IMG/VR virus record: IMGVR_UViG_3300024246_000002
Coordinates: 610-64,609 of that record
From: a virus
Taxonomy: Duplodnaviria; Caudoviricetes
DNA length: 64,000 nt
Direction: 5' to 3' (one strand)
How positions within the stretch are numbered: the stretch's first letter is position 1; every line of letters starts with the position of its first letter. Shown one piece after another: positions 1 through 64,000 of this stretch. The position numbers and the translations under genes were made by a program. Under the pieces are notes generated by a model that was not told the origin of the DNA, ran no database searches, and was given only the letters and a program-made list of their open reading frames with translations.

Positions 1-3000
1 TCAGGCCATTACTAGCATTGCTTCCGGTGTAGCCAACACCTTCACGGCCACAATCGCCAGTTCAGCGGAACTCGCTCCGGGTTGCCAAATTACCATCAAC
101 GGAACCACAAACGATGCGGAGTTTGGCGGGGTAAAAACCGTCGCCAGCGTTCCTGATGGGACGCATATCACATACACAAGTGGGGTGAACGCCGCCGTTG
201 CCATCTCTACGACCACCGCGACAGGCGGCAACGTCCGCTACTTCTTGGGCGACCATCTTGCGCTGCCAACTCCTGGTGCTGGCGGACTCCAGTACGAAAT
301 CTATCTCGGCGGAACGAAAGTTGCGGAGAGCCTAATTGCTAATTTGGGCTACACCGACACCACCTACAACACATGGGACTACTGGGGAGCGACCATCTCA
401 GGCGGCTATCCGGTTAGCTGGTGGGCACCGACGACTGCGCCAGTATCTCCTGTCAATGACACTTACACCGGCTGCATCAGCAACATCGCTGGCACGACTC
501 TTACGCTGGTAAATTGCAGTACTGGCGCGGCTCTCAATCTAGGAAATAGCGTAACGGGAGCGCAGGGAAGATTCGACAACGCTCCCAACATCGCCGCTTG
601 TGTTTCGGCCACAAACGCCAGTGCTGTAACAGGCGCGGGCGGGACTTGCCGCTTCCCAGTGGTTGTTGAGAACAACGCCTCACAAGTCTACTGCTACGAA
701 ATCAGCACCTTCCTGGACCTTACCGGCGTGAATGCCATCATCCAGGACGGTACGGTGTGCTTGCGAGACACCCTGAAATTCAACGGCAACTGGTATGGCA
801 CGGACCTGTCTGCCAAGCGAATGATTAATCCAAGCTTTGGTCTGCGTGCTCACATTCCCATTTTTGTATTCACCGCCAATCCTGGAATCTGGATGAGCGC
901 AGGAAGCAGCGGCTTAAACAAGGTGGATGTGCACGTATTCAACAATGGCGTTGTTGGGGTATTCAACACTGGTGCAAACGGCGCTCAAGTATTCGAGGAT
1001 GACAGTTTTTTCTCCGCCTCCGCCAACGATTACATGAACGTGCTCTTTTATGATTACCAGTCGAGTGCTGCGGGGGCATTCGGATTCAAATTCCGCAATT
1101 CAAGTTTCATTGCCAACAGCGTGCTTAACGGCGGTCAGGCACAGGTTGGGCAAACCACAACACCTGCGTTCATCAGCAAGTTCAACACGTTGATGAATTT
1201 CGACTACATCACAGGCAGCACCCGTGGCATTTATATCGTTCCCCATGTTTCGGGCCTATCGGGACGTTTCATCGGCGGCGAAGAGTGGCAGGGTAACATC
1301 ACGCCCATCATCACCTTTCAGCCGTACTACGCAGGGAACACGGCTGGTTTCTACTCCATCATGGATTTGTATAACGACACCGGGCCAGCCCCGATGGTGG
1401 CGTACATTCCCAGCCCGGCAGCTTCGCTCGGCGCAACGATTCAAATCAATGGCTCCGATCTGCCATCTGCGAATGGACCACTAGTCTCCGGCTCTCCCTT
1501 CGCCTCACTCATCCTGCAAAACATCAGCGCAACGAACGCCTTGCAACTCGGCCAGAACATGAACACCACATCCATCGGGCAGACGAATGGCTCCTTGCCC
1601 GGAATCAGGACGGCGAGCTTGGCGACAGCCGCCGTCAATTACACCGGGAATCACACGCTCACAAAGGCGGAGGGCGCGGTCAACGCTCAAGGCACGCTGA
1701 CCTTCACGATTGACACCACGCTTGGCGACGGGCAGATGTGGGATGTCTACAGCGAAACAGGCACAACGACGCTGACGGTTAGTGCGGGAACGCTCCACGG
1801 CAACGCGGCCACCGGCAACATCACGATTCCCAACAATTCCGGGATGCACGTGTTCCTGAAGGGTGGGAACGCCTATGCCTATGGATTGGGCGGAGGAGGC
1901 GGTGGTGGAGGCTGCACACCGGGAGGCACAACGAACGCATCGCTCTATAACGGCGGTGGTGGAACCTGTGCTGGTGTGAACTCGCCCACAGTCAATGGCA
2001 ACTATATCTTGAACTACAATGTGACAGCTTCCGCATCGGTTGCGCCAACTATTAATCTTCCTGGTGTGCCTGTGAATCCACAGACAGGCGCAACCTATAC
2101 TCTTCTCTACAGTGACCGTGGTTCATTGATTACCGCGACAAACGCGGGAGCGCAGACCTACACGCTCGTCAATCCATCCTCTACGGGATTCGGCTCCAAC
2201 TATTTTTTCGTTCTGAAAAATGCCGGGACTGGCGCAGTGACGATGGCCGCCAGTGGATTCACTATCAATGGAGCAGCATCTTTGGTTGTTCTGCCGGGTT
2301 GGACGATGTTCACGTGGTCTGACGGTGTGAACTATCTTGCATCCCGATTACTAGATTTCAGTGGCATTGTCGATTGCAAAGACGTTGGTGGAAACCATTT
2401 GAACATGGATGCAACGACTCCGCTCGGCCTTAGCTGCGGAACGAGCGCATCCGGTAATGGGCTATCTGGCATGACGACTGGACAGGTGCCCATCGCCAAT
2501 ACCGCAACATCTGTGACTTCCTCCAAGGCTCTTGCTGGGGCAGGAACTGGAATTGTTACTGGCCCCACGAGCTCAGTCAATACGGACTTAGTGGACTATA
2601 GCGGGACTGGTGGACAGACCGCTGATTCTGGCGTGCTCTTGGCAAATGTGTGGCGCAAGGATGTGGCAAATATTTCTGCTGCGGTGAATCATGATTTCTC
2701 AGCAGGGACGATTAAACTTCCCGCTGGTGCAGGCGCAACGGCCAGTGCATCTTCAAATGAAATCCTCGACACCACAAACAAGAATGTCCATGACTTCGTA
2801 AACGGGGCGGATTCGATTCGCGCCAACTTCGCATCCGCACCCACCACAGGAGATTGCATCAAGGGTATAATTACGGCGGGGAATCTCTTGCTTGCAGACG
2901 GTGGCGGCCTGAACTGCGGAATCCAGAACACCACCACCACAAATCCCACCACGGCAGTTACTGGTAACTCCTGTTCTGCTGCGGCCACAACCGTAACGAT

Positions 3001-3196
3001 GACTGGCCTAACCAGCACCATGACGATCACTTTTACGCCCAATGCGGACATCACCGCTTCAGTTGGCTGGGGTTCTACGGGCGGACTCGTAATCGTAGCG
3101 TGGCCCACGACAAATACCGTGAACTACAAAATCTGCAACCAGACCGGAAGCAGCATAACTCCGGGAGCAGTGACCTGGAATGTGAGCGCCCGATGA
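1..3196 (+). CDS. Tail fibre/adhesin-like protein, 5'-truncated (frame open from base 2)
   Basis: The reading frame is open from position 2 through the 1003-aa ORF. It is Thr/Gly/Asn/Cys-rich and beta-rich with a GGGGGGGG linker, and has a C-terminal domain (PTTNTVNYKICNQTGSSITPGAVTWNV) shared with other structural-region ORFs. Confidence 0.7.
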   Translation, partial: QAITSIASGVANTFTATIASSAELAPGCQITINGTTNDAEFGGVKTVASVPDGTHITYTSGVNAAVAISTTTATGGNVRYFLGDHLALPTPGAGGLQYEIYLGGTKVAESLIANLGYTDTTYNTWDYWGATISGGYPVSWWAPTTAPVSPVNDTYTGCISNIAGTTLTLVNCSTGAALNLGNSVTGAQGRFDNAPNIAACVSATNASAVTGAGGTCRFPVVVENNASQVYCYEISTFLDLTGVNAIIQDGTVCLRDTLKFNGNWYGTDLSAKRMINPSFGLRAHIPIFVFTANPGIWMSAGSSGLNKVDVHVFNNGVVGVFNTGANGAQVFEDDSFFSASANDYMNVLFYDYQSSAAGAFGFKFRNSSFIANSVLNGGQAQVGQTTTPAFISKFNTLMNFDYITGSTRGIYIVPHVSGLSGRFIGGEEWQGNITPIITFQPYYAGNTAGFYSIMDLYNDTGPAPMVAYIPSPAASLGATIQINGSDLPSANGPLVSGSPFASLILQNISATNALQLGQNMNTTSIGQTNGSLPGIRTASLATAAVNYTGNHTLTKAEGAVNAQGTLTFTIDTTLGDGQMWDVYSETGTTTLTVSAGTLHGNAATGNITIPNNSGMHVFLKGGNAYAYGLGGGGGGGGCTPGGTTNASLYNGGGGTCAGVNSPTVNGNYILNYNVTASASVAPTINLPGVPVNPQTGATYTLLYSDRGSLITATNAGAQTYTLVNPSSTGFGSNYFFVLKNAGTGAVTMAASGFTINGAASLVVLPGWTMFTWSDGVNYLASRLLDFSGIVDCKDVGGNHLNMDATTPLGLSCGTSASGNGLSGMTTGQVPIANTATSVTSSKALAGAGTGIVTGPTSSVNTDLVDYSGTGGQTADSGVLLANVWRKDVANISAAVNHDFSAGTIKLPAGAGATASASSNEILDTTNKNVHDFVNGADSIRANFASAPTTGDCIKGIITAGNLLLADGGGLNCGIQNTTTTNPTTAVTGNSCSAAATTVTMTGLTSTMTITFTPNADITASVGWGSTGGLVIVAWPTTNTVNYKICNQTGSSITPGAVTWNVSAR

Positions 3197-3897
3197 AATT
3201 TATTTTCTTCCTGCTCACTCTATTTCTGCCGCAAGGTCCAGCGGTTCCGGGTCACACCGGAGCGATTGGCGGCGGTGGCGGAGGATCTGCTCCATCTCTC
3301 GACGGAACTACTTGCACTGGTCAGACGTTCGGTGCAGCATCGCAGACCTGCGTGTTCAGCAGCAACCTCGTCTCTGGCCGCGGAATCCAGATGGTGTACT
3401 TTGCCGGGAGCGGCGGGACACCCACGATCAGCGGATGCGGCATCACCTGGACGACAGACACAGGCTCGCACAACATCAACACGGCAACAGGGATTGCGGC
3501 ATCGAGCGCAGCCTGCACGGTGACGATTACGGCGGCATCTGGCACACCGTCAATGGGCGTGGTTGGAGCGGAGATTCAGAATACGAGTGGGGTAGATGTA
3601 AGAAGTGGCAGCAACGTATCGGTAATTTCCGCAACGGCAACGGTTGCATTCAACTGTCCTGCGGTGACAACCACCGTAAACAATGACCTCGTGTTTTGTC
3701 TCTTATCGGATGCCAACGGCAACAACGGAACCTACACGGCAGGGACGGGTTTTACGCTTAGTAGCGTGACTTCGGGATTCAAGACTGCATTCGAGACAGA
3801 AACTCTCGCTTCGGCGGGGGCAGTGACACCGCAAGCGATCTATTCCCTTAACGCCGTGGGCGCTATGGCAACTTCTACGATTGCGTGGAAACCATGA
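3193..3897 (+). CDS. Secreted-type beta-sandwich protein (putative fibre/decoration component) with N-terminal signal peptide
   Basis: ATGA overlap with the upstream stop. The N-terminus is MKFIFFLLTLFLPQG, followed by a poly-Gly linker and a Cys/Thr-rich domain containing TTTVNNDLVF. Confidence 0.65.
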   Translation: MKFIFFLLTLFLPQGPAVPGHTGAIGGGGGGSAPSLDGTTCTGQTFGAASQTCVFSSNLVSGRGIQMVYFAGSGGTPTISGCGITWTTDTGSHNINTATGIAASSAACTVTITAASGTPSMGVVGAEIQNTSGVDVRSGSNVSVISATATVAFNCPAVTTTVNNDLVFCLLSDANGNNGTYTAGTGFTLSSVTSGFKTAFETETLASAGAVTPQAIYSLNAVGAMATSTIAWKP

Positions 3898-6800
3898 AAC
3901 GACTACTCCTATTGCTGCTCTTGCTGCCCATCGGCCTTCGTGCCCAGCACATCGCCATCATCAATTTCTCACACGGCGTTGCGGGCGCGACACTCTCCAG
4001 TGGCAATGATGGCGGCGTATCTGGGCGCATCGCTCAAAGCTGGTACGGTAGCTACGGAGGTTCCGCGCAGGGATGCAGTGGACAGGTTCCTTGCGTAACC
4101 ATTTCAAACTCTAGCGGAGGTCTGACTTACTCTAACACTCCTGTTTGTGGGCCGGTCCCAACGGTTACGGGCAGCCCTATCATGCTCGACTACAATCCAA
4201 CGCTTGCAGGTGGCTCAAGCAATCAGATTGTCGGAATGCAATTTCCATCGAGCGGAGTTTCTACGGTAGTACAGTTCGTTGTGCTGTTTTGCAGCAACAT
4301 CCCGGCAACTCAATCCTTCGGCACCACGGGCGACATGATTCAAATGGTCAGCCCCAACAATCAACTCTCTAACTATAACTGCCAACCCGGTTCTTGCTGG
4401 TTCGCTCTGGAGCATGGGGTTCTCGCCGGAACTCACCCAATGCCTTACACCGTTGGAACTTGGGTTCAACTCGCCGGACAGTACGTGATCGGTGGTACTT
4501 GCGCGGATACAACTTTCTTCACGGACTGCCAGCGCTTAGGTGAATACGATTTGGCTGGAAATCAAATTGGAACTCCTGATTATGGAAGCGGTGGCGGAGC
4601 GGGAAGTCCAGCGCAAATCACACTTGGAAATGGGAACGGAGGTAGCTTTCCAGCGGGGAACTTTCATGTGCAGTTCGCTGGCGTGAAGATGTGTTTGTTC
4701 AACTGTAATGTTGGTATGTTCCCGATGAAGTTCACCCCTGCACCTCCAACTGACGGGCTTATCCCACGCAATCGCACGACTGACTGGACGCGCGCGGGGA
4801 TCCCCGGCAATAACGCGGGCACGCTCCCGTCCTCTGCGTGGACGCAGTTCGGCTCGACGCTCACTGCGGGCAGCTACACAGGCGCGACCATCACGGCTAG
4901 TACGGTCGGCTGCAACAATCAGTTCCTTCGACTAGGCGCGGGAACCTTCACGGTCAGCGGCGGTATTAATCTGCCGTCGAACTGCGAGCTGCGTGGTCTC
5001 GGCGCGGATACCACGTCTCTCATCATGGTCGGGGCCTCCGCGACCTGTCGCACGATAACCGCTGCTGTCTGCATCAAGACGACCGGCGACGGGACGTTCA
5101 TCGGGAATATCCCGGCGGTGAGCTGCAACTGGACGGCGGGGTATGCGCAGGGTGCCACGCAGGTCACGCTCTCGGCGTGCACCGGCGCGGGAATCACGTC
5201 CATCGTCCCCGGAACCATCCTCGCACTCAATCAGTGCGGGACCGGATTCACCGGCGCGAACAACTGTACTGGTACGGCCGTCGATAACGGCGGCCTCTAC
5301 ATGTGCCTTGATAGAATCACCGCAACGCCGACCGGCTGCTCGGCAAACGGCGGCGGCACCTACGAGCGCCCGACTATCGAACTTCCCGTCGTGACCGCCA
5401 TCAACACGGGAACCGGCGTCGCGACCATCTCGCCGCCGCTGACTATGCCGAATTACGCATCAGGGCAGACGCCGCAGGCGCAAATTATCCAGCCTGCGAC
5501 GATGGCGGGCGTGAAGGACATGTCTATCGATTTGAGCGCCACCGGAGCCGACTCCGCCTGCGTCGAACTCTACGACGCATACAAGGTCTGGATTCGCGGC
5601 GTGCGCTGCCTGAATAATAAATTCGAGGCGTTCGCTATTACGCAGACCGCGAACTACATCGTCGAGGACAATTACCTCTACGGAACGACCGCGACGCCGC
5701 CTTCCGGCTATGGCATCCGCCCCTTCTACTCGGCCTACGGACTCGTCGCGAACAACATCTCGCAGAACGTCTACACGCCTATGTTTCAGGACTCGCCGAC
5801 GATGGCGACGGTCTGGGCGTACAACTTCGTCGTCAATAACAACAATCCGGGCAACACATTTATGAATCAGGCGTTCACCGACCACTGGCCGAACTGCTAC
5901 ACGCTCGCGGAAGGGAATATCGCCAACCAGTTCAACCCGGACGATGCACACGGCGCGGCCTGTGTAGACACGACGAATCGCAATCTGTTCACGGGATGGG
6001 AATCGACGCCTGCGACGCCGAAATCCTCGAACACTGTGGCGATTCAAGATCAGGCGTTCACGCGCTTTCACAATCACATTTTCGACGTGCTCGGCACGCC
6101 GGGGTATCACACGCTGTACTCGACGCTCGGGAACAACAATTCGGTGCTGTGGCTCGGGCAGGGCGTCGGCGGCGTGTCGCCGCCCGTGCCGTCCGACTCG
6201 CTGACCGCCAGCACGACGATCCGCTACGGCAGCTACAACGTGGTGCAGGCGGCGGTGCGTCTCTGCGGCACGTCGCTCAACACCGGATGGGTAGGTCTGT
6301 GTGGCAGCGCGAGTGAATCCGCGCTCACGGCGCCGACGCTACCGGGATTCGCGCCTGCCATCGGCGATGCGGCGATCGGGCAGCCGCCTGCCCCTGCGTC
6401 CTTCATCTTCACCACCCGGCCAAGCTGGTATCCGAACTCGAAGCCGTTCCCGCTTATCGGCCCGGACGTGACCGGCGGCAATCTCGGCCAGTGCTCCGGC
6501 GCGCTTAACGTCGTCGGCCAGTTCAATGGTGTTCCAGCGCTCACAAACGCGCAGTGCGGCGGTCACGGCATCACCGCGTCGGCGTGGGCTGGTCACGTAA
6601 ATTCTAATTCAGCAATGGATTGTTATCTGAACGTGATGAACGGCCCTGTAGATGGTAGTGGAGCAGTACTATCGTTCAATGCGGATAACTGCTACGCCGG
6701 AGCAGTCCCCGCCCCAATCGCCAGCTTCAGCCCTTCCACTGCCAACGTGGGCCAAGTCCCCCTCAACCTCACAAGCAATCCAAGCGGACCCTATACGCTC

Positions 6801-7304
6801 ACGAACATCGGGACAGCCAATCTCGTCAACACTTCCATCACTCTTCCTAACTCACTGTTTTCTATCGTGAGCAATACTTGCGGCTCACCAGCTACAATTA
6901 CGAGCGTTATTCTTGGCACTGGATTCACGCTGACGCCCGGCCAGTTCTGCACATTCAATGTGACCGCCACACCGACCGCCATTGGAGGCAATACCGCCAA
7001 CGCGGTCTTCACCGAGAACACCGCGGGAGGCTCTGATATCTTGGCGCTGAGTGCTACAGGGACAGGAACGCCCTCTCCATCCACTATCATGTTCGCAGGC
7101 ATCATGTCTGACCGTACACTCTGTCCTGTGGTTCCGGCCACAACTCAGCTTTGCTATTCCCTCCAGTGTGCGTGCATGTGGATTTCCATGAACGGCGGCT
7201 CTTATATCCCAATGGGCGTAAGCTCGGTGAATGGCCTATCGGGTAAAGTAGTGCTGCCGATTCCAACGAAGGCCGTGAGCACGACGACGACGGTGATTCA
7301 ATAA
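3894..7304 (+). CDS. Large signal-peptide protein: pectate-lyase-like right-handed beta-helix plus C-terminal ASH/choice-of-anchor-D-type Ig domain (putative tailspike/depolymerase)
   Basis: MKRLLLLLLLLPIGLRAQ signal; IPRNRTTDWTRAGIPG and ELRGLGADTT beta-helix cap; Asn-ladder repeats (WIRGVRCLN, YIVEDNYLY, LVANNISQN); C-terminal YTLTNIGTANL...CTFNVTATPT Ig-like domain. Confidence 0.65.
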   Translation: MKRLLLLLLLLPIGLRAQHIAIINFSHGVAGATLSSGNDGGVSGRIAQSWYGSYGGSAQGCSGQVPCVTISNSSGGLTYSNTPVCGPVPTVTGSPIMLDYNPTLAGGSSNQIVGMQFPSSGVSTVVQFVVLFCSNIPATQSFGTTGDMIQMVSPNNQLSNYNCQPGSCWFALEHGVLAGTHPMPYTVGTWVQLAGQYVIGGTCADTTFFTDCQRLGEYDLAGNQIGTPDYGSGGGAGSPAQITLGNGNGGSFPAGNFHVQFAGVKMCLFNCNVGMFPMKFTPAPPTDGLIPRNRTTDWTRAGIPGNNAGTLPSSAWTQFGSTLTAGSYTGATITASTVGCNNQFLRLGAGTFTVSGGINLPSNCELRGLGADTTSLIMVGASATCRTITAAVCIKTTGDGTFIGNIPAVSCNWTAGYAQGATQVTLSACTGAGITSIVPGTILALNQCGTGFTGANNCTGTAVDNGGLYMCLDRITATPTGCSANGGGTYERPTIELPVVTAINTGTGVATISPPLTMPNYASGQTPQAQIIQPATMAGVKDMSIDLSATGADSACVELYDAYKVWIRGVRCLNNKFEAFAITQTANYIVEDNYLYGTTATPPSGYGIRPFYSAYGLVANNISQNVYTPMFQDSPTMATVWAYNFVVNNNNPGNTFMNQAFTDHWPNCYTLAEGNIANQFNPDDAHGAACVDTTNRNLFTGWESTPATPKSSNTVAIQDQAFTRFHNHIFDVLGTPGYHTLYSTLGNNNSVLWLGQGVGGVSPPVPSDSLTASTTIRYGSYNVVQAAVRLCGTSLNTGWVGLCGSASESALTAPTLPGFAPAIGDAAIGQPPAPASFIFTTRPSWYPNSKPFPLIGPDVTGGNLGQCSGALNVVGQFNGVPALTNAQCGGHGITASAWAGHVNSNSAMDCYLNVMNGPVDGSGAVLSFNADNCYAGAVPAPIASFSPSTANVGQVPLNLTSNPSGPYTLTNIGTANLVNTSITLPNSLFSIVSNTCGSPATITSVILGTGFTLTPGQFCTFNVTATPTAIGGNTANAVFTENTAGGSDILALSATGTGTPSPSTIMFAGIMSDRTLCPVVPATTQLCYSLQCACMWISMNGGSYIPMGVSSVNGLSGKVVLPIPTKAVSTTTTVIQ

Positions 7305-8002
7305 TGGGCTGGGGCCAAGGACGATTCGGCTGGGGCACCTACAATAGCGATGCTCCACAGTTCGACGTGACCGACCAGACCATTCTCTCGTCCGTCCAGC
7401 TCTCTCTGCTCGAACCCGACACTCAGGGCGCTTTCTATCAGTCTAAAATCTGGACTCCCACTCAAGTAATCCAATACCTAAATGACCGTCAGCGGAGATT
7501 TCTGAGCGAGAGCGGCGTCTCGGTCATGGTGGCCTACCAAGCGGGTCAATCGAACCAGTTCCGCTACTCCATCCCGCAGAACGTCATCGACCTTCGCCGC
7601 GTGGCATGGGCCAATGAAACCGACCCGATGGCCTACACGGAGCTTCCGCGCGCGACTGGCTGGGAACTAGACCATGGCGTCACAGGATGGCCCACGAAAA
7701 CCGCCACACGTCCCGAGGTCTACATGGAAGACCATCTCCCGTCGCTTACGATCGCAGTGAACCCGACTCCCACCGATGCTGGAGAGATGGAGATCATCGC
7801 CAATGCCCAAGGAACTCAAGTGGACGGCTCAGGAATATTCCTATCGGTCCCGGATGACTACACTCCTTATTTGGCTTGGGGTGTTCGTGCGGATATGCTT
7901 GTGGGCGAGTATGAAGGGAATGACCCGAAACGCGCCCAGCACTGCGAGGACAGATTCAGCGAAGGGATTGAGCTTGCGCGGATCCTGACAGGGGAGATAT
8001 AG
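7304..8002 (+). CDS. Head-tail adaptor/tail ring protein (P22 gp4/T7 gp11-like)
   Basis: 232 aa with a WTPTQVIQYLNDRQRRF helix motif, immediately upstream of the nozzle gene; resembles 62481..63170. Confidence 0.6.
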   Translation: MGWGQGRFGWGTYNSDAPQFDVTDQTILSSVQLSLLEPDTQGAFYQSKIWTPTQVIQYLNDRQRRFLSESGVSVMVAYQAGQSNQFRYSIPQNVIDLRRVAWANETDPMAYTELPRATGWELDHGVTGWPTKTATRPEVYMEDHLPSLTIAVNPTPTDAGEMEIIANAQGTQVDGSGIFLSVPDDYTPYLAWGVRADMLVGEYEGNDPKRAQHCEDRFSEGIELARILTGEI

Positions 8003-11567: not shown

Positions 11568-12227
11568 ATGGCCGAACCACTCTCAAGATTACAACCACCA
11601 GATCAAATCGGAGTCTCTGAGGAGCGCGTTCGGCCATCTCCTGTCGCAGGGGCAGCGGGAGGCGAGAAGAAGCTCGAATGGGTCATCACGGACTTCGACG
11701 CCGCGCGGATGCCCGGTCTGGAGATATTCCTGCCGGGGATGTGGAAGCGGATGCACGACGATGGGACGTTCGCCATGTTCTTCCATGAGGGGCCGGATAT
11801 GAGCTTTGTGCAGTTCGGCGCGATTCTCGCGTCGCCCGCCGATAAGGTCCAGCTCATCATCGGTCACGACGCGAACGGCGACGCGAAGGAACACGCTGGG
11901 ATGGTCATTCTTAACCACGTCTTCGTGAATGACCAAGTGAAGCGCGCGGTCGGGAACTTCATGTTCTTCCGCGAGTATTGGCACCGTCACGACTCAATGG
12001 AGCTTGGGCGAGCAGTAATGGACCATTGGTTCCTCACGATGGGATTCGACGTTATCGCCGGGCTGACGCCCCGAGCGAATCGCGCTGCCATCCAGTTCAT
12101 CAAGCGCCTCGGGTTCCAAGTCGTCGGCGACGTGCCCGGATTCACAGTCTATGAAGGGAAGCCCAGCGCGAGCGTCACGAGTTTTATGACCCGTGAAATG
12201 TGGACTAAGAAGCGCGAGGAGAAGTAA
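11568..12227 (+). CDS. GNAT-family acetyltransferase
   Basis: IAGLTPRANRAAIQFIKRLGFQVVG matches the RimJ/RimL-type GNAT C-terminal motif; it sits before the ejection genes as in many podophages. Confidence 0.7.
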   Translation: MAEPLSRLQPPDQIGVSEERVRPSPVAGAAGGEKKLEWVITDFDAARMPGLEIFLPGMWKRMHDDGTFAMFFHEGPDMSFVQFGAILASPADKVQLIIGHDANGDAKEHAGMVILNHVFVNDQVKRAVGNFMFFREYWHRHDSMELGRAVMDHWFLTMGFDVIAGLTPRANRAAIQFIKRLGFQVVGDVPGFTVYEGKPSASVTSFMTREMWTKKREEK

Positions 12228-17975: not shown

Positions 17976-18220
17976 AAGGGCTGTCACTGGTGCTGCTCGG
18001 CTCACTGGCGCTGCTCAAGCGAAGAAAAGGGATTGTAGCCACGCTCGGACTCTTGTGGATTGGACTGGCCCTGTTCGACTTCTCGCTCTTACTATTCCCT
18101 GGGTGGGAGACTTGGCGGGATATGGGTTCCTACTGGATATTCATCACCGCGATGCTCTGGATTAGAGTAAAATCTCGACATGGAACTCCTGCTAAGACGC
18201 TCTCTGCCAATCCTACCTGA
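17951..18220 (+). CDS. Hypothetical membrane protein (3 TM)
   Basis: Three hydrophobic stretches; overlaps the previous ORF by 25 nt. Confidence 0.45.
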   Translation: MEHAAILVEGLSLVLLGSLALLKRRKGIVATLGLLWIGLALFDFSLLLFPGWETWRDMGSYWIFITAMLWIRVKSRHGTPAKTLSANPT

Positions 18221-18560
18221 CGCCCTGCCCGGCGAGCTTACCATCGACGGCGCTCACGTCGCCTACACGCTTGAGCGAATCAGCGTCGCCATCCCTATGG
18301 GGCGCTATCAACTCGGGCTGTACAACTCCCCGCACTTCGGTCGCGTTATGCCGATACTCCGGGACGTCCCTAGCCGGAGCTTCATCGAGATTCACATGGG
18401 GAATCATCCAGCGCAGAGCGACGGATGTATTCTCGTGGGCGACCCGCAGGATCCCACGACGGGCGACGTGATGAACTCGGTGAAGACGTTCAACGCTCTA
18501 TTTCCTGTGATTGAGGGAGCGATCGAGAGCGGCGAAGGGGCATGGATAAGTGTGTCTTGA
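18180..18560 (+). CDS. DUF5675-family putative endolysin/peptidoglycan peptidase
   Basis: GELTIDG...YTLER...IPMGRY...VPSRSFIEIHMGN...SDGCILVG is the typical DUF5675 signature. Confidence 0.7.
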   Translation: MELLLRRSLPILPDALPGELTIDGAHVAYTLERISVAIPMGRYQLGLYNSPHFGRVMPILRDVPSRSFIEIHMGNHPAQSDGCILVGDPQDPTTGDVMNSVKTFNALFPVIEGAIESGEGAWISVS

Positions 18561-18660: not shown

Positions 18661-19086
18661 CTAGGACAGTTGATCCAGCCCGAAGTCCGTCACTTGCGGC
18701 GGTGGCGCCGCAAGCACTGGCACGTTGAACGTGTGGCTGATGGGCGAGCCCGCTCCGTTCACGCCCGACATGGTGACGTTGAACGATGCCGCGGTGTCGC
18801 CGGCCGCGACGGAAGCCGTAAACTGAAGATTGCTCCCTACGGCACCGAGCGATACGAGCGGGTCATCCGTCACGACGGTAGGCCCCGAGCTGAGCGGCAC
18901 ACCGTTCGGCGGGACGAGACTGATCTGGAAGGTTCCTGTGGAACCTACTTGAACTCCTGCGATTGCCATAATGAAATCTCCTTTACGTTGAAATAGCTGA
19001 AAGTCAGTTACTGCGAAAGCCCGCTCAAGTATATCCAAGACCTTGTGAAGCAGGCGAAGAATATCCTTGTCGTCGTGGCCGAACAC
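18661..19086 (-). CDS. Ig-like beta-sandwich protein with a second in-frame start at 18969
   Basis: Open frame from GTG 19086; internal AAAGGAGA RBS plus ATG at 18969. Confidence 0.55.
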   Translation of the reverse strand: MFGHDDKDILRLLHKVLDILERAFAVTDFQLFQRKGDFIMAIAGVQVGSTGTFQISLVPPNGVPLSSGPTVVTDDPLVSLGAVGSNLQFTASVAAGDTAASFNVTMSGVNGAGSPISHTFNVPVLAAPPPQVTDFGLDQLS

Positions 19087-19087
19087 G

Positions 19088-19810
19088 CTACACCGCGCTC
19101 AAGTCTTCGATAAGTCCGTTCAGGTCGAGGCCGCTGGGCGAGACGCCAGAGGCCTTAATCCAATCGGGGGTTACGATGGCGTAGGCTTCCGTAACCCATT
19201 GCTGCCAGAACTCCCACACTGTCCTATAGAGCTTTCCCCATGAATCTAGAGCGGAACCGATGGAGCCGTAGCCTTCCCAATTTACACAGTGCCCTTCGTT
19301 CGTGGGCTTGTCATTCGGCAGGAACTTGAAGGTTGGGTCTATGCCCTGATTTATCTCATCCACCATCGACTGTGGAACGGTGAAGCCCGTGTAGATTCCG
19401 CCGAAGATATCGATGACGGCCTTCACCATTTCGATGTTCTGAACGTCAACACTGGCCGCGCCAAGAATAATCCCTTTGGCCTTGTACCAGTTGATTACGT
19501 CGAGGCAAACTGCCCCATTGTCCGTTGCTTCGGTCCCATCGTATCCTGTGATGGCGGAGTAGTCGGAAATCGCTTCCGCGTCCGTGACGAGAAGTGGACT
19601 TCCCGCTCGCGCTACGGAGCGTTGGGTCATTCGCAGGTGGTACATCGCAGCTACCGTGCAAAGGCCGATCCTGTCATTGCCCAGCATCCCTAGAACGATG
19701 TCGCGCTCCCATGCCCGTACAGGGCGGGATTTGACCAGCCTCATGTTCATGTGGTTGGACATCGAAGCCATTTTGAGGCTGCGGACGGCGGGTAGCTTTC
19801 CGAACTTCAT
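19088..19810 (-). CDS. Papain-like cysteine peptidase domain protein
   Basis: MLGND..GLCTVAA (catalytic Cys), EGHCV (His) and DSWG (Asn/Asp-SWG) occur in papain order. Confidence 0.6.
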   Translation of the reverse strand: MKFGKLPAVRSLKMASMSNHMNMRLVKSRPVRAWERDIVLGMLGNDRIGLCTVAAMYHLRMTQRSVARAGSPLLVTDAEAISDYSAITGYDGTEATDNGAVCLDVINWYKAKGIILGAASVDVQNIEMVKAVIDIFGGIYTGFTVPQSMVDEINQGIDPTFKFLPNDKPTNEGHCVNWEGYGSIGSALDSWGKLYRTVWEFWQQWVTEAYAIVTPDWIKASGVSPSGLDLNGLIEDLSAV

Positions 19811-20367
19811 TATTTAACCCTCAAGGTTTGACCGTTGTCCTGCATAATCGCGTTGAACTTTTTGATGAAGTCGTTCTTGTTCTTGGCTGGAGCCACCGAG
19901 CCGATAGCCGCTTTCATCGCCGCTGGAACTGGCGCAGGCTGGAGCTTGTTGCGGATGCTGTTCAGCGTGGAGATGAGCAACGCCAAGCCGAGCTTTGCCG
20001 CCGAGAGGATTGCCGAGGGGATGCTGATGGGCAGCGCGGCGAGAGCTTGTGTGAGTCCACCGGAGAGCGCGTCGAGCGTGGCGATTACCTTGTCGAGCCG
20101 GGTTACTTGCGGGTCTGTGGAGTGCCGGTAGAGGTTGATCGCGTTCTGCACAGCGGCCCACAGGTTGTCTACCGTGGTGGCAATGGCCGTGAACGGGCCG
20201 TCCACGATAGCCGCAATGCCGTCGAACGCTGCGAGTCCTACCGGCACCCACGTAACCAGGTTGTCGAGAGCGCTGCACCCTTCGAGTGATACTGACGCAC
20301 CAGCGAGAGCGAGTCCTGCCGCACCGCCTACCAGATGGCCTCCAAATTCTCTGCGTGATATTCTCAT
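19810..20367 (-). CDS. Tat-exported lipoprotein
   Basis: MRISRREF twin-arginine motif, hydrophobic region, lipobox LEGC. Confidence 0.65.
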   Translation of the reverse strand: MRISRREFGGHLVGGAAGLALAGASVSLEGCSALDNLVTWVPVGLAAFDGIAAIVDGPFTAIATTVDNLWAAVQNAINLYRHSTDPQVTRLDKVIATLDALSGGLTQALAALPISIPSAILSAAKLGLALLISTLNSIRNKLQPAPVPAAMKAAIGSVAPAKNKNDFIKKFNAIMQDNGQTLRVK

Positions 20368-53500: not shown

Positions 53501-55981
53501 ATGCGGCTACGATTCTTAATCACGGCTCTCATAGCGACAATCTGCACGCTTCCTGCGAGGGCGCAGTACACGCCTCCGGGTGGAGGCACAAGCGGTGGTG
53601 GAACAGGCTCTCCAGCACTCCCCGCTACCGCGAACCTAGTTGCCTTCAATCAATTCCTCGACGGCTCCGGCACCGTGATGACCGATTCATCCGGGGCGGG
53701 TAATACCTGCACGCTTGGCGCATCCACCGCGGCTCCGACAGTGAACTCCGTAGCCACTGGCGGAGGGTTGACATTCGCCGCTGCCAACAACCAGTTCTGT
53801 GCGTTCCCGGCAGCCCTAAACACCGCCAAGAGTTTTATGGCGGCTATAAGTTATCAGGTTGGTGTAACGCCCGGTCCACGATATGCGGGATTGATAAATG
53901 AGCAATTCCTAAGCGGCAGCGGCGCGGTTGCGAGCAGTTTGAACTGGGAGCTTTACAACCTCTACACCACGGATGCTTGGTCGCCCGGAAGTCAGGCGGC
54001 TTCTCATTTCCGTACGCAGGGAACGACCACCACTTCGTGGAACGCTTCAAGCTCCTGCAATTTTCTTGGCACGGGCATTATCGGCCTCACGCTCGACACT
54101 AGCGACACTTTTTACATCAATGGACAACCCTGCCTTAATCGAGTGACCGGCTCAAGCCTCAACCAGCAAAGTACAGGTGTGTTGCAGCTTGGCGGTTCCG
54201 GCACGCTCGCCCAGCCAGCCAGCCAGCAATTTGGCGGAACTGTTTATTGCTTCGCGGCGTGGAGCATCGTCTTAACGCCCCCGCAAGTAGCGCAGGCTTC
54301 GCAAGCCCTTCAATCTTCCTGCCTCACGCAGCGCGGCATCACGCCATTTCTAGGCGGCGCAACGAGCGCCACTGCTACGCTCCAAGACAACCACGATTCC
54401 AACGTGCTAGAGGGGGATTCGCTTTTCGCTGGCATCAACATTCCCTCGCAAGGAATCAACGGAACTCCGGTCAGTACGGCGGATACGGCCATCGCTGGGT
54501 CTGGAACATGGAGCATCCTCGCCCGATTTCCTCTCAACGACGTTCCGCTTTATCGGGCCGGGGCGAACCGCAATACGTTCATCGAATGGGCGGGAACGAA
54601 CGACCTCGCACAGTCGGTCAGCAGCGTGGCTGGAAATTTGTGTGCAACGGCTCGCGTTGCCGAGCAAGTTGGATTTAACACCTACTTTGCCACGATGATT
54701 TCGCGTACCGTGCAAGAGACATTCCGCGACAATCTAAATCCTTTCATTCGCCAGTACATTCCCTCCTGCTCCAAAACTTACACGGGCATCATGGACTTGG
54801 GCGCAAACACGCATCTTGGCTGTGATGGTTGCAACTCCAATACGACCTATTTCAACGTAGATGGCGTTCACATTACCCAGTTCAGCGCGACGAACATCGT
54901 CGGCCCTTACTACGTCTTTGCCTTCAACCGGGCGAACGGCAACCGGGTAGGCTCTCCCAGCTTCAACACCTATACCGGAACCGGCTTGGGCATCCCCACA
55001 CTCTTGCAGTCGGTGGATTGCACGGCATTGAGCGGAACGAGCGTCACCTGCACGCTTCCGTGGAACACCACAGCGGGCAGCCTGATTACGGTAGTCACGA
55101 ACTGCGTCTCCTGCGCCAGCTCTGCGATCAACACGCCAACGGACAGCCAGGCGTTGACCTATACCTCCATCACCGCACAGAGCGCCTACGTTGCCGGTGC
55201 TTTGATGCGGGCGGCATTTGCTCCAAACTCAACGGCGGCGGCAGAGACAGTCACGCAAACGCTCACGGGCGGCGCTCCCTCGAACATCGAAATGACCGTG
55301 CAGGAATGGAGCGGCGTACTGACTGCGGCTCCGCTCGACGTGTCCAGCGCCATCGCAACCGGCACCAGCACATCACCGTTGACGGTCGGCATCACAACCA
55401 CCGTATCGGGCGACCTGCTCTTTGGCTATGGGGCAATCTTCAACACCAGCACTGGCGGCCTAGCAAGTTACGGAACCTACTGGCAGCCCACCGCTCCGCT
55501 CGTTTTAGCGAACGACGTTCCTCCAGTCGCGGGAATGAGCAGGGTGACAGGTGCGGCTGGCAGCTACACCACGGGCGCTACCCTCTTCCAACTGAACGGC
55601 GCGAATCCTCAATGGGGCGCGGGCGCGGCTGCATTCAAGGCCACGACAGCGACTTCCACCTTCCAGCTTCAGGCAGCGGACATTTACGCCGAGTGCGCTC
55701 CGAACGGCACAAACAACGTAGTGCTGATTCTGCCCGATGGAACGCCCATGACGGGCGGCACCATCACCATCAAGAATGCCCAGACATCCGGCGCGGCAAC
55801 CTGCGTTGTGAATGCTCCCACACCCTATGCAACCGGCGTACAACAGACGATTGACGGCGCGACCTCTGTCACGATTGCGAACAAAGCGACAGCGGTATTC
55901 AAGAGCAAGTACAGCTTCACGGGGACACCGGGGACGAACTTGGTGCCCGTAATTACGTGGGAGCAGCTTCAGAACAATTAG
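53501..55981 (+). CDS. Signal-peptide multidomain protein: LamG-like lectin plus SGNH/GDSL esterase plus beta-sandwich
   Basis: MRLRFLITALIATICTLPARAQ signal; LEGDSL (block I), AGTNDL (block III), DGVH (block V). Confidence 0.75.
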   Translation: MRLRFLITALIATICTLPARAQYTPPGGGTSGGGTGSPALPATANLVAFNQFLDGSGTVMTDSSGAGNTCTLGASTAAPTVNSVATGGGLTFAAANNQFCAFPAALNTAKSFMAAISYQVGVTPGPRYAGLINEQFLSGSGAVASSLNWELYNLYTTDAWSPGSQAASHFRTQGTTTTSWNASSSCNFLGTGIIGLTLDTSDTFYINGQPCLNRVTGSSLNQQSTGVLQLGGSGTLAQPASQQFGGTVYCFAAWSIVLTPPQVAQASQALQSSCLTQRGITPFLGGATSATATLQDNHDSNVLEGDSLFAGINIPSQGINGTPVSTADTAIAGSGTWSILARFPLNDVPLYRAGANRNTFIEWAGTNDLAQSVSSVAGNLCATARVAEQVGFNTYFATMISRTVQETFRDNLNPFIRQYIPSCSKTYTGIMDLGANTHLGCDGCNSNTTYFNVDGVHITQFSATNIVGPYYVFAFNRANGNRVGSPSFNTYTGTGLGIPTLLQSVDCTALSGTSVTCTLPWNTTAGSLITVVTNCVSCASSAINTPTDSQALTYTSITAQSAYVAGALMRAAFAPNSTAAAETVTQTLTGGAPSNIEMTVQEWSGVLTAAPLDVSSAIATGTSTSPLTVGITTTVSGDLLFGYGAIFNTSTGGLASYGTYWQPTAPLVLANDVPPVAGMSRVTGAAGSYTTGATLFQLNGANPQWGAGAAAFKATTATSTFQLQAADIYAECAPNGTNNVVLILPDGTPMTGGTITIKNAQTSGAATCVVNAPTPYATGVQQTIDGATSVTIANKATAVFKSKYSFTGTPGTNLVPVITWEQLQNN

Positions 55982-55991
55982 GGAGAGCAAG

Positions 55992-56366
55992 ATGCGGGAA
56001 CTTACGAAGCTTAAAATCTTTTTCATCGCACTGGCTGTAATTGCGATTTCGTCCATTCTGTTCATAAACCGGGACCGCCTTTCCGCCCAAAACAACTGCT
56101 CCAGTTCTACGCTTTGTGCAACTTCCGGTAGCATTGGAGGCGGGCTTTTGGCTGTTGGCGCTTCGGCTTCTGGCACAGTCACCGTGACCGGAGCTGGAGT
56201 CGGAAGCATCTGTTTTGCTCAACCTTCGGATGGAAGCGACATGATAGCTCTGGGAGCAATCCCATCTTGCACTGTTACAGCGCCAAATACAGTGGTGGTA
56301 CGCGTCTTGGCTGTTATCACGCTCACGCCAGCCGCAAAAACGTACAACATTAGAGTGGTTCAATAG
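55992..56366 (+). CDS. Signal-peptide/TM small beta protein sharing the fibre C-terminal domain
   Basis: KIFFIALAVIAISSILF...AQ; TVTVTGA...APNTVVVRV. Confidence 0.6.
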   Translation: MRELTKLKIFFIALAVIAISSILFINRDRLSAQNNCSSSTLCATSGSIGGGLLAVGASASGTVTVTGAGVGSICFAQPSDGSDMIALGAIPSCTVTAPNTVVVRVLAVITLTPAAKTYNIRVVQ

Positions 56367-60406: not shown

Positions 60407-61657
60407 ATGGCACAGGAAACTTACGCCGAGCTTTGGCGGGCGCTTCAGTTGCACTCGCCAGTGCTTCCAACCACGCTCGCTCAGCAATTTATTCGCTCGC
60501 GTTTTAGGGATGTTAGAAGAAAAAGGTTATGGTCATGGCGCATCGGCCAGAACCAGTTCATCACGCCAGATGTCTACTCGGTGGGTCTCGCCTCGGCGAC
60601 GCTCAATTCCCCCGTCATCACCGGGTCTGGAACAGGTTGGACCAGCGCACTCGTCGGACGGCAATTCCGCTTCGGCGCGGTCGCCCCAATCTACACCATC
60701 ATCGAGGTTGACTCGGCGACGCAGCTCCAGATTGACCTTCCGTTCGGCGGCGTCGTCCCCGGCTCGCCCACAGGCTATCAAATCTTCCTCGCTTACCTGA
60801 CTCCGCCAGCGGACTTCCAAGACTTCATCTCGCTGAAGGACACGTTCAACAACTACCGACTGTGGCTCCACTTGAGCCAAGAGGAGCTGGATACCTATGA
60901 TGCTCAGCGCTCGTGGAGTGGAACTGCGTATGGGGTTGCTGACTACCGATACTCGACATCGCCTACGGCCGGAAGTGTGGGCGCTGCAGTCCAAGTTGTC
61001 GGCACTGTAGGCGACGCCGCTCCCGTCCTCTTCGGCACCTTCAGCGGTCGCACCAACGCCGTTTACTCCATCAATATCACCACTGGAGGCCCCGTAGGCA
61101 CCGCTCAATTCACTTGGGCGCTCAATGGCGGCGCGCCGAACGGTCCCTTCGCTACCGCTCAATCACCCTTCGCGATGTCCAACGGTGTCACGGTCCAATT
61201 CCCCTCCAACATCGGCAACTACGTCCTCAACGACGTCTTCGTCTCACCCTGCACGCCGGGATTCACTGCCCAGATCCCCATGTACGAGCTGTGGCCCTAC
61301 TGCATGTCTCAGCGTGTCTACCCCTTCATCTACGACAAGCGGTTCCCCGACCTCGACGATCCCAATGGCTTAGTCCCGCCGTTTATCGACGCCGATGTGC
61401 TCGTCAAAGGCGCTCTCGCCGACGTCTGCCGGTGGCGCGGCTCCCAGACGACGCCCAATCCGATGTACGGACTGGACACCGCCATGTCATTCGAGAAAGA
61501 ATTCCAGATGAAGGTCGCTGAGATGGAGCGCGAGGACGACGAGGTCTATCTCGTGGACGTCCGCTACCAGCTCAACTCTTGGCAGGGCTTGGGGATGGCC
61601 CCGATGCCCTTCGCAATGGGCGCAGATTGGGCGCAGTCTCACGCGGTCTCAGCATAG
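60407..61657 (+). CDS. Head-tail adaptor/ring protein with inserted beta domains
   Basis: TYAELWRALQLH...AQQFIRSRF...W.W; C-terminal LWPY...YPFIY...DLDD...VPPF.DADVLVKGALA. Confidence 0.65.
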   Translation: MAQETYAELWRALQLHSPVLPTTLAQQFIRSRFRDVRRKRLWSWRIGQNQFITPDVYSVGLASATLNSPVITGSGTGWTSALVGRQFRFGAVAPIYTIIEVDSATQLQIDLPFGGVVPGSPTGYQIFLAYLTPPADFQDFISLKDTFNNYRLWLHLSQEELDTYDAQRSWSGTAYGVADYRYSTSPTAGSVGAAVQVVGTVGDAAPVLFGTFSGRTNAVYSINITTGGPVGTAQFTWALNGGAPNGPFATAQSPFAMSNGVTVQFPSNIGNYVLNDVFVSPCTPGFTAQIPMYELWPYCMSQRVYPFIYDKRFPDLDDPNGLVPPFIDADVLVKGALADVCRWRGSQTTPNPMYGLDTAMSFEKEFQMKVAEMEREDDEVYLVDVRYQLNSWQGLGMAPMPFAMGADWAQSHAVSA

Positions 61658-62480: not shown

Positions 62481-63170
62481 ATGTCCGCGCGCACCCAATA
62501 CACGCTCGCTCAAGTTCAGACGATGGTCTTCGCCCGATTCGAAAACTCGCCATTCTGGACTCCCGCCGAGATACAGGGCTATATCAACGAGGCCCTGCGG
62601 TGCTGGTCGTGTCTCACGGGCTACTGGAAGCAGCGCGTCGTCATGCAAACTCTACCGACGCTCCCTTACTACAGTCTCGCGGGATTCCTCACCGCAGGGA
62701 TGCGCGTCGAGTTCAACTCCACTCCACTCGCTCAAGGCTCCCTGACCAACTGGGATAAGGGCTATCCGAAGTGGGAAGGACGACTGGGGATTCCGCTTGA
62801 GTGGGCTCCCGTAGGCATCAGCCTCATCGCGCTCCGGCCGGCGGACGCTGTGGGCTACAATTCTCTCGTCATCGACGGTCTCTCCGCAGCACCGCAGCTC
62901 GTCGCCCTAGACGACACAATCGATATCGGCGCGGAGGAACTGAACACTCTCGTCAACTACTGCCAGTACCTCGGAGCGTTCAAGGAAGGCGGGGCGGAGT
63001 TCGATGCCGCAATCCCGCTCTACCAATCCTTCCTCAAGGCCGCAGCGGTGAAGAATGAGAAGCTCCTCTCGTCCAGCCTGTTCAGGAAAGCGATGGGGAT
63101 AGATATCGACCCGCCCATTCTGCGGCCACGGCGTACCAGGAGCGACCTCCAACCAGTAGGAGAGCGATGA
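62481..63170 (+). CDS. Head-tail adaptor/ring protein (paralog of 7304..8002)
   Basis: TLAQVQTMV...FWTPAEIQGYINEALR. Confidence 0.65.
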   Translation: MSARTQYTLAQVQTMVFARFENSPFWTPAEIQGYINEALRCWSCLTGYWKQRVVMQTLPTLPYYSLAGFLTAGMRVEFNSTPLAQGSLTNWDKGYPKWEGRLGIPLEWAPVGISLIALRPADAVGYNSLVIDGLSAAPQLVALDDTIDIGAEELNTLVNYCQYLGAFKEGGAEFDAAIPLYQSFLKAAAVKNEKLLSSSLFRKAMGIDIDPPILRPRRTRSDLQPVGER

Positions 63171-64000
63171 TGAGACGGACGATTCTTCTATTGCTGATGC
63201 TCGCGTGGGCTGCTGGCGCGAGCGCTCAGAACGATTTCACAACCACGCCGAATCTTGGACTCAAGAAGCCGAAGATTGGCTCCACGAACGGTGGAATCTA
63301 CATCAACCAGGATTTCGACACCCTAGACGCGGCGATCGGCGTCTTCCACGGCGGGTTCGTCTCGGTCCCGTTCAGCGCCACTCCCGTATTCGACCTGACC
63401 AAAGGGAACACGTTCGCTATCACGTTGAGTGGGAACGTCACTTCGTCTACGGTGAATCAACCCGGAATCAAATCCGGCCAGATCCTCTACCTGATTGCGT
63501 GCCAGAATGCCACGGGCGGATTCACCTTCGCGTTCCCTTCCAACTTCCAGTCTCCCTCGCCTGTGACAGTCTCGCCGAACGCCAACGTCTGCTCGGCTTC
63601 GACGTGGGTGTGGGACGGTCTTGTCGGCAAGTGGATTAACGTCAATTCCAACGGCGCGGGAGCAGGCGTGGGCGCGCCCTTGCCGTTCTCGACGGTAGCA
63701 TTCAGCGCGACTCCCTCCTTCTCTGGGACGCTCAATGCCGCCTACGGAATCACTCTCACCGGAAACGTCACGTCGTCGAGTGTGAGTGGGACACCCGTGA
63801 ACGGCGTCGTGATGAAGCTCCACATCTGCCAAGGGGCAGGTTCGCCATGGACGTTCGCATTCCCCGCTAATTTCCTCAATACGACAGCGATTCAGACAAC
63901 GGGCTGCACCGATGAGACGTTCAGCTTCGACGGGACAAATTGGAGTCAACTAACTCAACCCGCAGGTGGAGGTGGTGGCGGCGGGAATTGTTCCTCATCT
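63167..64000 (+). CDS. Signal-peptide fibre-like protein, 3'-truncated, with two tandem ~60-aa repeats
   Basis: MMRRTILLLLMLAWAAGASAQ; TTPNLGLKKP; repeats (V.FSATP.F...ITL.GNVTSS...CQ...FAFP.NF); open to the window end. Confidence 0.7.
   Translation, partial: MMRRTILLLLMLAWAAGASAQNDFTTTPNLGLKKPKIGSTNGGIYINQDFDTLDAAIGVFHGGFVSVPFSATPVFDLTKGNTFAITLSGNVTSSTVNQPGIKSGQILYLIACQNATGGFTFAFPSNFQSPSPVTVSPNANVCSASTWVWDGLVGKWINVNSNGAGAGVGAPLPFSTVAFSATPSFSGTLNAAYGITLTGNVTSSSVSGTPVNGVVMKLHICQGAGSPWTFAFPANFLNTTAIQTTGCTDETFSFDGTNWSQLTQPAGGGGGGGNCSSS

Follow-up and report, generated by a model that had tools for sequence, protein, structure and literature searches.

The analysis covers a window of 64,000 nucleotides (positions 610 to 64,609 of IMG/VR record IMGVR_UViG_3300024246_000002, a virus of the Caudoviricetes) and five of its late-operon proteins, here named E, A, B, C and D. 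The five proteins probably go via the Sec pathway and target host glycans. Canonical tail fibres and tailspikes are folded in the cytoplasm and have no signal peptide, the assembly of tailed phages is by the textbook account wholly cytoplasmic, and disulfides form in the periplasm. The original prediction, made from the DNA letters, held that these cysteine-rich proteins may be exported, oxidatively folded and added to virions at or after lysis, or may instead remodel the surface of the infected cell. Its first part, export with oxidative folding in the periplasm, is considered quite likely for the five proteins on indirect evidence: signals tuned to the host, their conservation over divergent bodies, and enriched, even cysteine counts. 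That any of the five joins the virion is doubtful, E being the best case. B, C, A and D are more likely soluble or envelope enzymes and binders acting on the polysaccharide coat of the host, first from inside the periplasm and, once the cell has lysed, around it, and E is the sole candidate that may dock on released virions. The features concerned are as follows (window coordinates).

63167 to 64000, plus strand: E, first part, with predicted signal peptide (63167-63226, 20 residues, ..GASA/Q, the slash marking the predicted cut here and below), fibre N-terminal module and two beta-sandwich repeats of ~100 residues
2 to 3196, plus strand: E, continuation (1503 residues in total), with Gly-rich linkers, central region and hypervariable last ~310 residues
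3193 to 3897, plus strand: A, 234 residues, with atypical hydrophobic N-terminus (3193-3243), Gly6 linker, beta-sandwich domain and 6 Cys; start codon overlapping the stop codon of E (ATGA)
3894 to 7304, plus strand: B, 1136 residues, with predicted signal peptide (3894-3944, ..GLRA/Q) and 36 Cys
53501 to 55981, plus strand: C, 826 residues, with predicted signal peptide (53501-53563, ..PARA/Q) and 16 mature Cys
55992 to 56366, plus strand: D, 124 residues, with long hydrophobic N-terminus, small beta-rich domain and 4 Cys; starts 10 nt after C
2275 to 6650: hypervariable cassette, comprising the E tip, all of A and B up to residue ~920, defined by DNA comparison with IMGVR_UViG_3300024323_000001

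Predicted signal peptides, cysteines and host context

Signal peptides were scored with a home-made scan of the von Heijne type, applied to all six frames, which looked for a charged n-region, a hydrophobic core and, at positions -3 and -1, small amino acids; the residue at +1 was ignored. Among the open reading frames (ORFs) of the six frames the five ranked highest or nearly so. Signal-like N-termini had been claimed for ORFs starting at 3193, 3894, 53501, 55992 and 63167, and these were borne out by an ORF check and by the scan. Four of the five had been said to end in AQ, and A/Q cuts were indeed predicted in B at 3894 (..GLRA/QHIAII), C at 53501 (..PARA/QYTPPG), D at 55992 (..RLSA/QNNCSS) and E at 63167 (..GASA/QNDFTT). 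A charged n-region, an h-region of 7-15 residues and small residues at -3 and -1 were clear for E, B and C. The ORF at 63167, listed earlier as one of its own, is actually the start of E, which runs over the circular junction to window position 3196. Two other kinds of signal were rejected by eye: a lipoprotein signal, as there is no Cys at +1 and no lipobox, and a type IX secretion system (T9SS) C-terminal domain or PEP-CTERM end, as there is no terminal hydrophobic helix with an Arg cluster.

Conservation of the signals in homologs was found by the heuristic check. A signal ending in A/Q or G/Q was kept in 8 of 9 B relatives at 27-62% identity, and a leader was present in six of the eight full-length C relatives. 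The E family was taken as the best 150 representatives, of which 96 were signal-bearing by one heuristic and 110 by another, looser rule; Q stood at +1 in 82 of the 110. A20, Q21 and the motif that follows did not vary among 13 aligned relatives of E (40-99% identity). Selection thus retains the leaders while the bodies diverge fast.

The cassette shows the same. Between 2275 and 6650 no DNA similarity to the close relative IMGVR_UViG_3300024323_000001 was detectable, and the flanks were 82-88% identical; the tail adaptor next to B was 96% identical and the 229-residue protein ahead of E 94%. In the sister cassette the A-like protein has another hydrophobic leader, and the leader of the B-like protein (~40% identity) ends FA/Q. 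Exchange of the E tip, A and the B core between such flanks is expected of proteins that read a variable host surface. A 6,340-bp NCBI contig (P0173, P0003) codes for an A relative at 97% identity and a B relative at 53% only. Its cassette boundary differs from that of the IMG/VR sister, so A and B can be swapped separately.

Mature cysteine counts were even in all five proteins (E 22, A 6, B 36, C 16, D 4). Together they hold 84 Cys in 3716 residues (2.26%). In 16 proteins of the same modules (head and tail) that lack a signal there are 24 in 5653 (0.42%), nine of the 16 having no Cys at all (Fisher p = 8e-16). The earlier description of the proteins as Cys-rich therefore stands. The mature count was also even in 81% of the 110 signal-like E-family representatives (p = 4e-11). 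Enriched cysteines in even number are the signature of disulfide-bonded extracytoplasmic proteins, to which, by this pattern, the five would belong.

Gln after the cleavage site (the Q-rule) has been held exclusive to Bacteroidetes, with Acidobacteria unmentioned (PMC5837995, PMC10653852). As a sample from the host group, 400 kb of the acidobacterium Granulicella mallensis X5P3 (G001, L127-L146) was put through the same heuristic, blind to +1. Of 73 long ORFs with a signal-like start, 33 had Q at +1 (45%, with Q at 4% in the background), and in many others the predicted cut apparently fell a few residues early, just ahead of ..AQ. A glutaminyl cyclase (PF05096) was found in four of five acidobacterial genomes. 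The preference for Gln after signal cleavage thus seems to hold in Terriglobia as well, and the A/Q leaders of the phage resemble those of a Terriglobia host.

The same trait was found in cultured phages. The Tunturi phages infect Acidobacteriota; Tunturi_1 and Tunturi_2 are short-tailed and come from Finnish tundra soil (Microbiome 2025, PMC11924767). The records used were PP887698, PP885685, PP885688 and PP885687. In Tunturi_1, signal leaders (e.g. ..AAASA/Q, ..LAGA/Q) were found on gp12, gp13, gp14 ('tail spike protein'), gp16 and gp17 ('virion structural protein'); all its large tailspike-like genes are signal-bearing. These proteins hold 10-32 Cys (gp16 only 2); the portal, capsid and nozzle-like proteins have neither such leaders nor such cysteines. 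Tunturi_5, a jumbo myovirus, has leaders on six consecutive genes (gp337-342), three of them annotated 'tail fiber protein', and Tunturi_4, a siphovirus, on gp113 and gp114 ('tail protein', 'virion structural protein'). Tunturi_3, a short-tailed phage of the host strain of Tunturi_1, served as a negative control for the heuristic: its annotated tail fibre and tail proteins start with Met-Ala/Ser and contain 0-0.8% Cys. The lack of the trait in a phage of the Tunturi_1 host strain makes it a choice of lineage and not a requirement of the host. The Tunturi paper contains no word of signal peptides and no virion proteomics (PMC11924767). Tunturi_3 gp18, gp19 and gp20 (L148, 15693-22304) have 826, 1136 and 234 residues, exactly the lengths of C, B and A; there is no similarity (BLAST E value > 0.2) and the match in length is probably a coincidence.

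Domains of the five proteins

The N-terminal module of E, coded in 63167 to 64000, reads NDFTTTPNLGLKKPK.GSTN..Y.N.DF.TLD. The motif DFTTTPNLGLKKPK.GSTN..Y.N.DF.TLD begins two residues past the predicted cut and occurs once in the genome. A scan of IMG/VR with the motif gave 29 loci. At 26 of them MS(GS)DYTTTPNLGL.KP forms the very N-terminus and there is no leader, the module lying 2-5 residues after Met. Cleavage of E would thus remake a free N-terminus nearly identical to that of ordinary fibres of related tail types. The signal-less module proteins are often encoded by two or three consecutive genes, and in three of five scanned against PHROGs the bodies matched tail fiber, tail spike or extracellular polysaccharide (EPS) depolymerase families. 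The one locus annotated (L191) codes for a major head protein and for a member of phrog_3287, the family of the nozzle-like protein found here; a BLAST comparison of the structural proteins of this phage with those of L191 gave no similarity. Four of the loci (L191, L192, L185 and L175) are on high-GC contigs with 2-3 consecutive fibre or spike genes that share the start MS..DYTTTPNLGL.KP, which suggests that several putative receptor-binding proteins share one docking site there.

The first 1100 residues of E are 82-100% conserved in the close relative, next to an adaptor at 96%, and the tip is swapped, which is the usual pattern of a fibre. These likenesses are the best argument for E as a virion fibre, but the module might serve trimerisation instead of docking. 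The central region has a beta-helix-like sequence pattern, as judged by eye. The N-terminal module had no Pfam match even at E value <= 10 and no direct PHROG match, no sequence relatives of E or C were found in the PDB, and E and B had no match in the five acidobacterial genomes. A likeness of the module to the N-terminal part of T4 gp9/gp10 was dropped, as it came from one Atlas cluster only (score 0.90, family in 23% of members).

The model of B consists of a leader helix, a lectin-like beta-sandwich (residues ~20-270), a right-handed beta-helix (~310-690), an unmodelled region and an immunoglobulin-like domain (~940-1050). Over residues 310-690 the predicted local distance difference test (pLDDT) score is 70-90. 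The top PDB matches of this core (7w1c, 9k4a, 4ru5, 4ru4, 4y9v) are capsule depolymerases and tailspikes (Foldseek E value 1e-10 to 1e-7, probability 1.0); Pfam Beta_helix reached 16.7 bits, below its cut-off. Template-modelling (TM) scores by query length are low (0.14-0.21) because the helix alone aligns. No particle-binding domain was found in B: the mature protein opens with the lectin-like beta-sandwich, which is 33-40% conserved in the close relative and has no Pfam or PHROG match. B had no match among 50,697 deposited phage genomes. From the model, B is probably a lectin joined to a depolymerase with a tailspike-type beta-helix.

C is made of a Gly-rich linker, a LamG-like domain (weak), an SGNH/GDSL esterase domain and further beta-sandwich domains. 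The blocks G305-D306-S307, T366-N367-D368 (GTND) and D454/H457 (DxxH) did not vary among nine relatives, and they fall within the PF13472 match of the relative P0172 (47.6 bits); C itself had no PF13472 or PF00657 match in Pfam even at E value <= 10. C is a likely lectin with an SGNH esterase, acting as a glycan deacylase. In two relatives at 70% identity (P0167 and P0168) an unrelated N-terminal module of 75 residues (MAEITPLN..) takes the place of the signal and 14-16 Cys are kept. The same enzyme body can thus be deployed with or without export, and P0167 and P0168 may be the virion-attached version of the enzyme. When E, B and C were compared with the five acidobacterial genomes, the sole cellular relative was a leader-bearing C relative of 1527 residues. 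Its gene (L151, G003:C9:655518-661741) is in an Acidobacteriaceae metagenome-assembled genome, directly upstream of a gene for the large terminase subunit (phrog_2, E value 2e-24), and on account of this neighbour it is assigned to a prophage or remnant, which ties the family to phages.

In the Atlas, A lies nearest to viral clusters, and secreted enzymes of bacteria have its fold as an accessory domain. The N-terminus of D could equally be a cleaved signal (..RLSA/Q) or a signal anchor.

Possible fates of the five proteins

In the proposed mechanism the N-terminal signals would carry E, A, B, C and D over the inner membrane, and host signal peptidase I would cleave at A/Q, the context favoured by the host group. 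The new N-terminal Gln would be cyclised by host glutaminyl cyclase, and the cysteines would pair in the oxidising periplasm, leaving the proteins hardened for extracellular life until lysis by holin and endolysin sets them free. E would be a long fibre whose predicted mature N-terminus is the free module of ordinary tail fibres, and A and D would be small beta-sandwich partners.

Several observations weigh against this reading or against parts of it. The cleavage sites come from a home-made rule. The leader of A is atypical, with a single Lys and a hydrophobic stretch followed by PQGPA/V, and D has a hydrophobic core of 18 residues and may keep it as an uncleaved signal anchor. The Sec route ends in the periplasm, and no signal for secretion over the outer membrane was seen by eye (lipobox, T9SS, PEP-CTERM). 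The two C relatives at 70% identity hold their 14-16 Cys without any signal, so cysteines alone are no proof of export. Q at +1 was also found in a Verrucomicrobiae genome (32%) and less often in a Vicinamibacterales genome (13%), so the preference is not uniform and these comparison genomes are no clean control (G005 L163-L172, G006 L153-L162). The model of B is mediocre overall (mean pLDDT 55) and that of C failed (pLDDT 40). The host is assigned from remote likeness (22% identity of the portal to Tunturi_1/2, 29.5% of C to a protein of Tunturi_5) and from leader style.

If the proteins are exported, they could all be enzymes that never join a particle. From the periplasm they would strip or deacylate the capsule, EPS or lipopolysaccharide of their own host, and after lysis they would clear the matrix around the burst; progeny would not stick to debris, superinfection would be blocked and a path opened to neighbouring cells. 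For the set as a whole this is a real possibility, put at somewhat under an even chance. It agrees with the depolymerase-like helix of B and the SGNH esterase of C, both with lectin-like domains, and with the interchange of signal and non-signal N-terminal modules on the body of C. Neither B nor C has a recognisable particle-binding module after the cut and the signal of C is replaceable, so that the surface-remodelling alternative of the original prediction fits these two at least as well as virion assembly does. Proteins with Q-rule signals in Porphyromonas phages are likewise thought to modify the host envelope (PMC10367356). However, such a fate for all five would leave this phage and Tunturi_1 without an obvious receptor-binding fibre. 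A free enzyme would not need the canonical fibre module and the long conserved shaft of E, and 11.4 kb, or 18% of the genome, is a large outlay for accessory proteins.

Alternatively, E, and maybe B and C through E, would be virion appendages that fold in the periplasm and dock at lysis on heads and tails made in the cytoplasm. This morphogenesis in two compartments is judged unlikely, E being its main candidate. Within this genome the fibre module is present in E only. The module stands free at the N-terminus at 26 of the 29 IMG/VR loci, on bodies of the fibre, spike or depolymerase type in three of the five scanned, and an A/Q cut would recreate it. The proximal 1100 residues are conserved beside the adaptor as the tip is swapped. 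Every fibre-sized, receptor-binder-like protein of this phage has a signal, as have the large tailspike-like genes of Tunturi_1, and the fibres of SU10 dock on adaptor and nozzle via their first residues (PMC9509320). Against it, B and C have no docking module, and the signal or other N-terminal module of C relatives suggests two alternative fates. Assembly after lysis would be costly under dilution, the conserved module of E could serve trimerisation, and Tunturi_3 shows that ordinary cytoplasmic fibres work on the host strain of Tunturi_1. A broader proposal is more doubtful still: in many tailed phages of Acidobacteriota the fibres and spikes for receptor binding would be exported via Sec, cut at A/Q, joined by disulfides and perhaps given a pyroglutamyl N-terminus in the periplasm, and would meet particles made in the cytoplasm only at lysis, as a two-compartment assembly in Caudoviricetes.

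That the hydrophobic N-termini are unused for export (uncleaved anchors, assembly tags or host-gene leftovers on proteins folded in the cytoplasm) is improbable: A and D are atypical and two C relatives carry the same cysteine load without a signal, but signals are kept over bodies at 27-40% identity and in independently swapped cassettes, the cleavage context follows the host's own preference, the excess and even parity of Cys are confined to signal-bearing proteins, and the trait turns up with each of the three kinds of tail (short, long flexible, contractile) among phages of one host genus.

Export to the periplasm, with E as the one protein that may go on to dock on particles, is the preferred reading. 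Every large protein of this phage that looks made for reading the host surface appears to be built for export, and the same is seen in cultured Acidobacteriota phages of three tail types. If such proteins join the virion, they do so in an unrecognised assembly step after lysis; fibres that depend on disulfides would fail to fold in a reducing cytoplasm, which would bear on fibre production and engineering. If they do not, phages of slime-rich soil bacteria spend about one fifth of the genome on secreted coat-remodelling enzymes, and in soil viromes many proteins are wrongly annotated as 'tail fiber'. The question can be tested on the Tunturi isolates, among which Tunturi_3 provides a control that shares the host strain of Tunturi_1.

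Phage identity, neighbouring genes and known systems

The contig is 64,609 bp long and its first and last 127 bases are identical; from this terminal direct repeat the genome is complete, circular and 64,482 bp in size. It is the genome of a soil phage and not a bacterial island. DNA methyltransferases are among its other genes, and the features next to the five proteins or named in the comparisons are listed below.

7304 to 8002, plus strand: SU10-type tail adaptor with 1 Cys and no signal peptide; the stop codon of B and the adaptor start share one base, the last of that stop codon
8004 to 11039, plus strand: nozzle-like virion protein, 1011 residues, phrog_3287, without signal peptide, directly after the adaptor
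60407 to 61657, plus strand: signal-less 'tail protein', 416 residues, homologous to Tunturi_1 gp11
62481 to 63170, plus strand: signal-less protein of 229 residues, 94% conserved in the close relative; stop codon overlapping the start codon of E (ATGA)
Minus strand: UDG-PolA fusion and PIF1-like helicase

The gene order is 229-residue protein, E, A, B, adaptor and nozzle-like protein, and C and D lie on the downstream side of the portal gene. At E/A, A/B and B/adaptor the stop codon of one gene overlaps the start codon of the next, and the genes are translationally coupled (ATGA overlaps). The adaptor matched PF24175 at 37.3 bits (Pfam cut-off 27), and the portal matched the SU10 portal family PF23899 weakly, at 20.2 bits and below the cut-off of 30. 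The phage context given in the original prediction agrees with this adjoining adaptor, the ATGA overlaps, the tailspike-like fold of B and the fibre module of E. Among deposited phages Tunturi_1 and Tunturi_2 of Tunturiibacter come closest, with portals that share 22% identity over 90% (E value 8e-41). Judged by these similarities, the genome most likely belongs to an SU10/Tunturi-like short-tailed phage with a host in the Terriglobia (Acidobacteriota).

Tunturi_1 gp11, the homolog of the 416-residue protein, likewise lies directly upstream of the signal-bearing genes of its phage. The 416-residue protein was found to be unrelated to Tunturi_5 gp336. Kinship of the 229-residue protein with the adaptor was rejected, since the shared match is weak and covers 28 residues only (E value 0.004). 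A GNAT acetyltransferase is encoded in the tail module (11568-12227), and acetyltransferases are annotated among the structural genes of Tunturi_1 (gp34) and Tunturi_3 (gp5, gp22). A DUF5675 protein (E value 3e-21) is encoded at 18180-18560, at the end of the presumed lysis region. It adjoins a minus-strand cassette (18661-20367) flagged earlier as a twin-arginine translocation (Tat) lipoprotein with a peptidase, and the products of both could be exported as well. A Pfam scan of ten small ORFs of the late and lysis region found no Dsb- or thioredoxin-like protein: nine had no family, the tenth being DUF5675.

Signal peptides on the fibres of tailed phages were not found described in literature searches aimed at export signals on fibre, tail and virion proteins. 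Phage proteins known to be exported include Sec-dependent and signal-anchor-release (SAR) endolysins, o-spanin lipoproteins, Bor and Lom of lambda and Llp of T5. They also use host export signals, but are factors of lysis, exclusion or conversion and not large fibre-like proteins of a structural operon. Lysis enzymes of phages with host export signals, the Sec-dependent and SAR endolysins, have been reviewed (PMC6116005). In Porphyromonas gingivalis phages, signals copy the host preference for Gln after the cut, as proposed here (PMC10367356). Those proteins are small, of unknown function, not fibre- or tailspike-like, and belong to prophages of Bacteroidota, whereas the host considered here is in the Acidobacteriota.

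The core of B has the beta-helix type of the tailspikes it matches (Klebsiella K1 lyase 7W1C, K64-1 S2-4 9K4A, phi297 gp61 4RU5, LKA1 gp49 4RU4, AP22 gp54 4Y9V) and, like them, B diverges fast between near-identical phages. Tailspikes have an N-terminal particle-binding domain, lack a signal and are made in the cytoplasm, whereas B has a signal, a lectin-like domain and 36 Cys. The tail of SU10 (Kuravirus) comprises adaptor gp11, long fibres gp12/13, short fibre gp16 and nozzle gp17 (PMC9509320). In both phages a PF24175 adaptor stands beside a large nozzle-like protein with fibre genes adjacent, but the SU10 fibres are without signals, and here the fibre-like genes are upstream of the adaptor. 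The signal-less IMG/VR fibres (L175-L201) share the module of mature E; in them it follows the initiator Met and in E a signal peptide of 20 residues.

The cultured phages Tunturi_1/2, Tunturi_4 and Tunturi_5 are closest to the arrangement described here. C matches a Tunturi_5 'tail fiber protein' (29.5%) and the portal is distantly related, as given above. Annotated tail fibre, tailspike and virion proteins of these phages are Cys-rich with signals ending in A/Q or G/Q, and Tunturi_1 gp13 and Tunturi_5 gp337 and gp341 share the PNL..L..P module that follows the signal of E. They differ in gene order and are of low sequence identity. What the present analysis newly contributes is a tie to phages in culture, one of which is a same-host control, a cleavage context that matches the host in Acidobacteriota, and a comparison between E and fibres that lack a signal.

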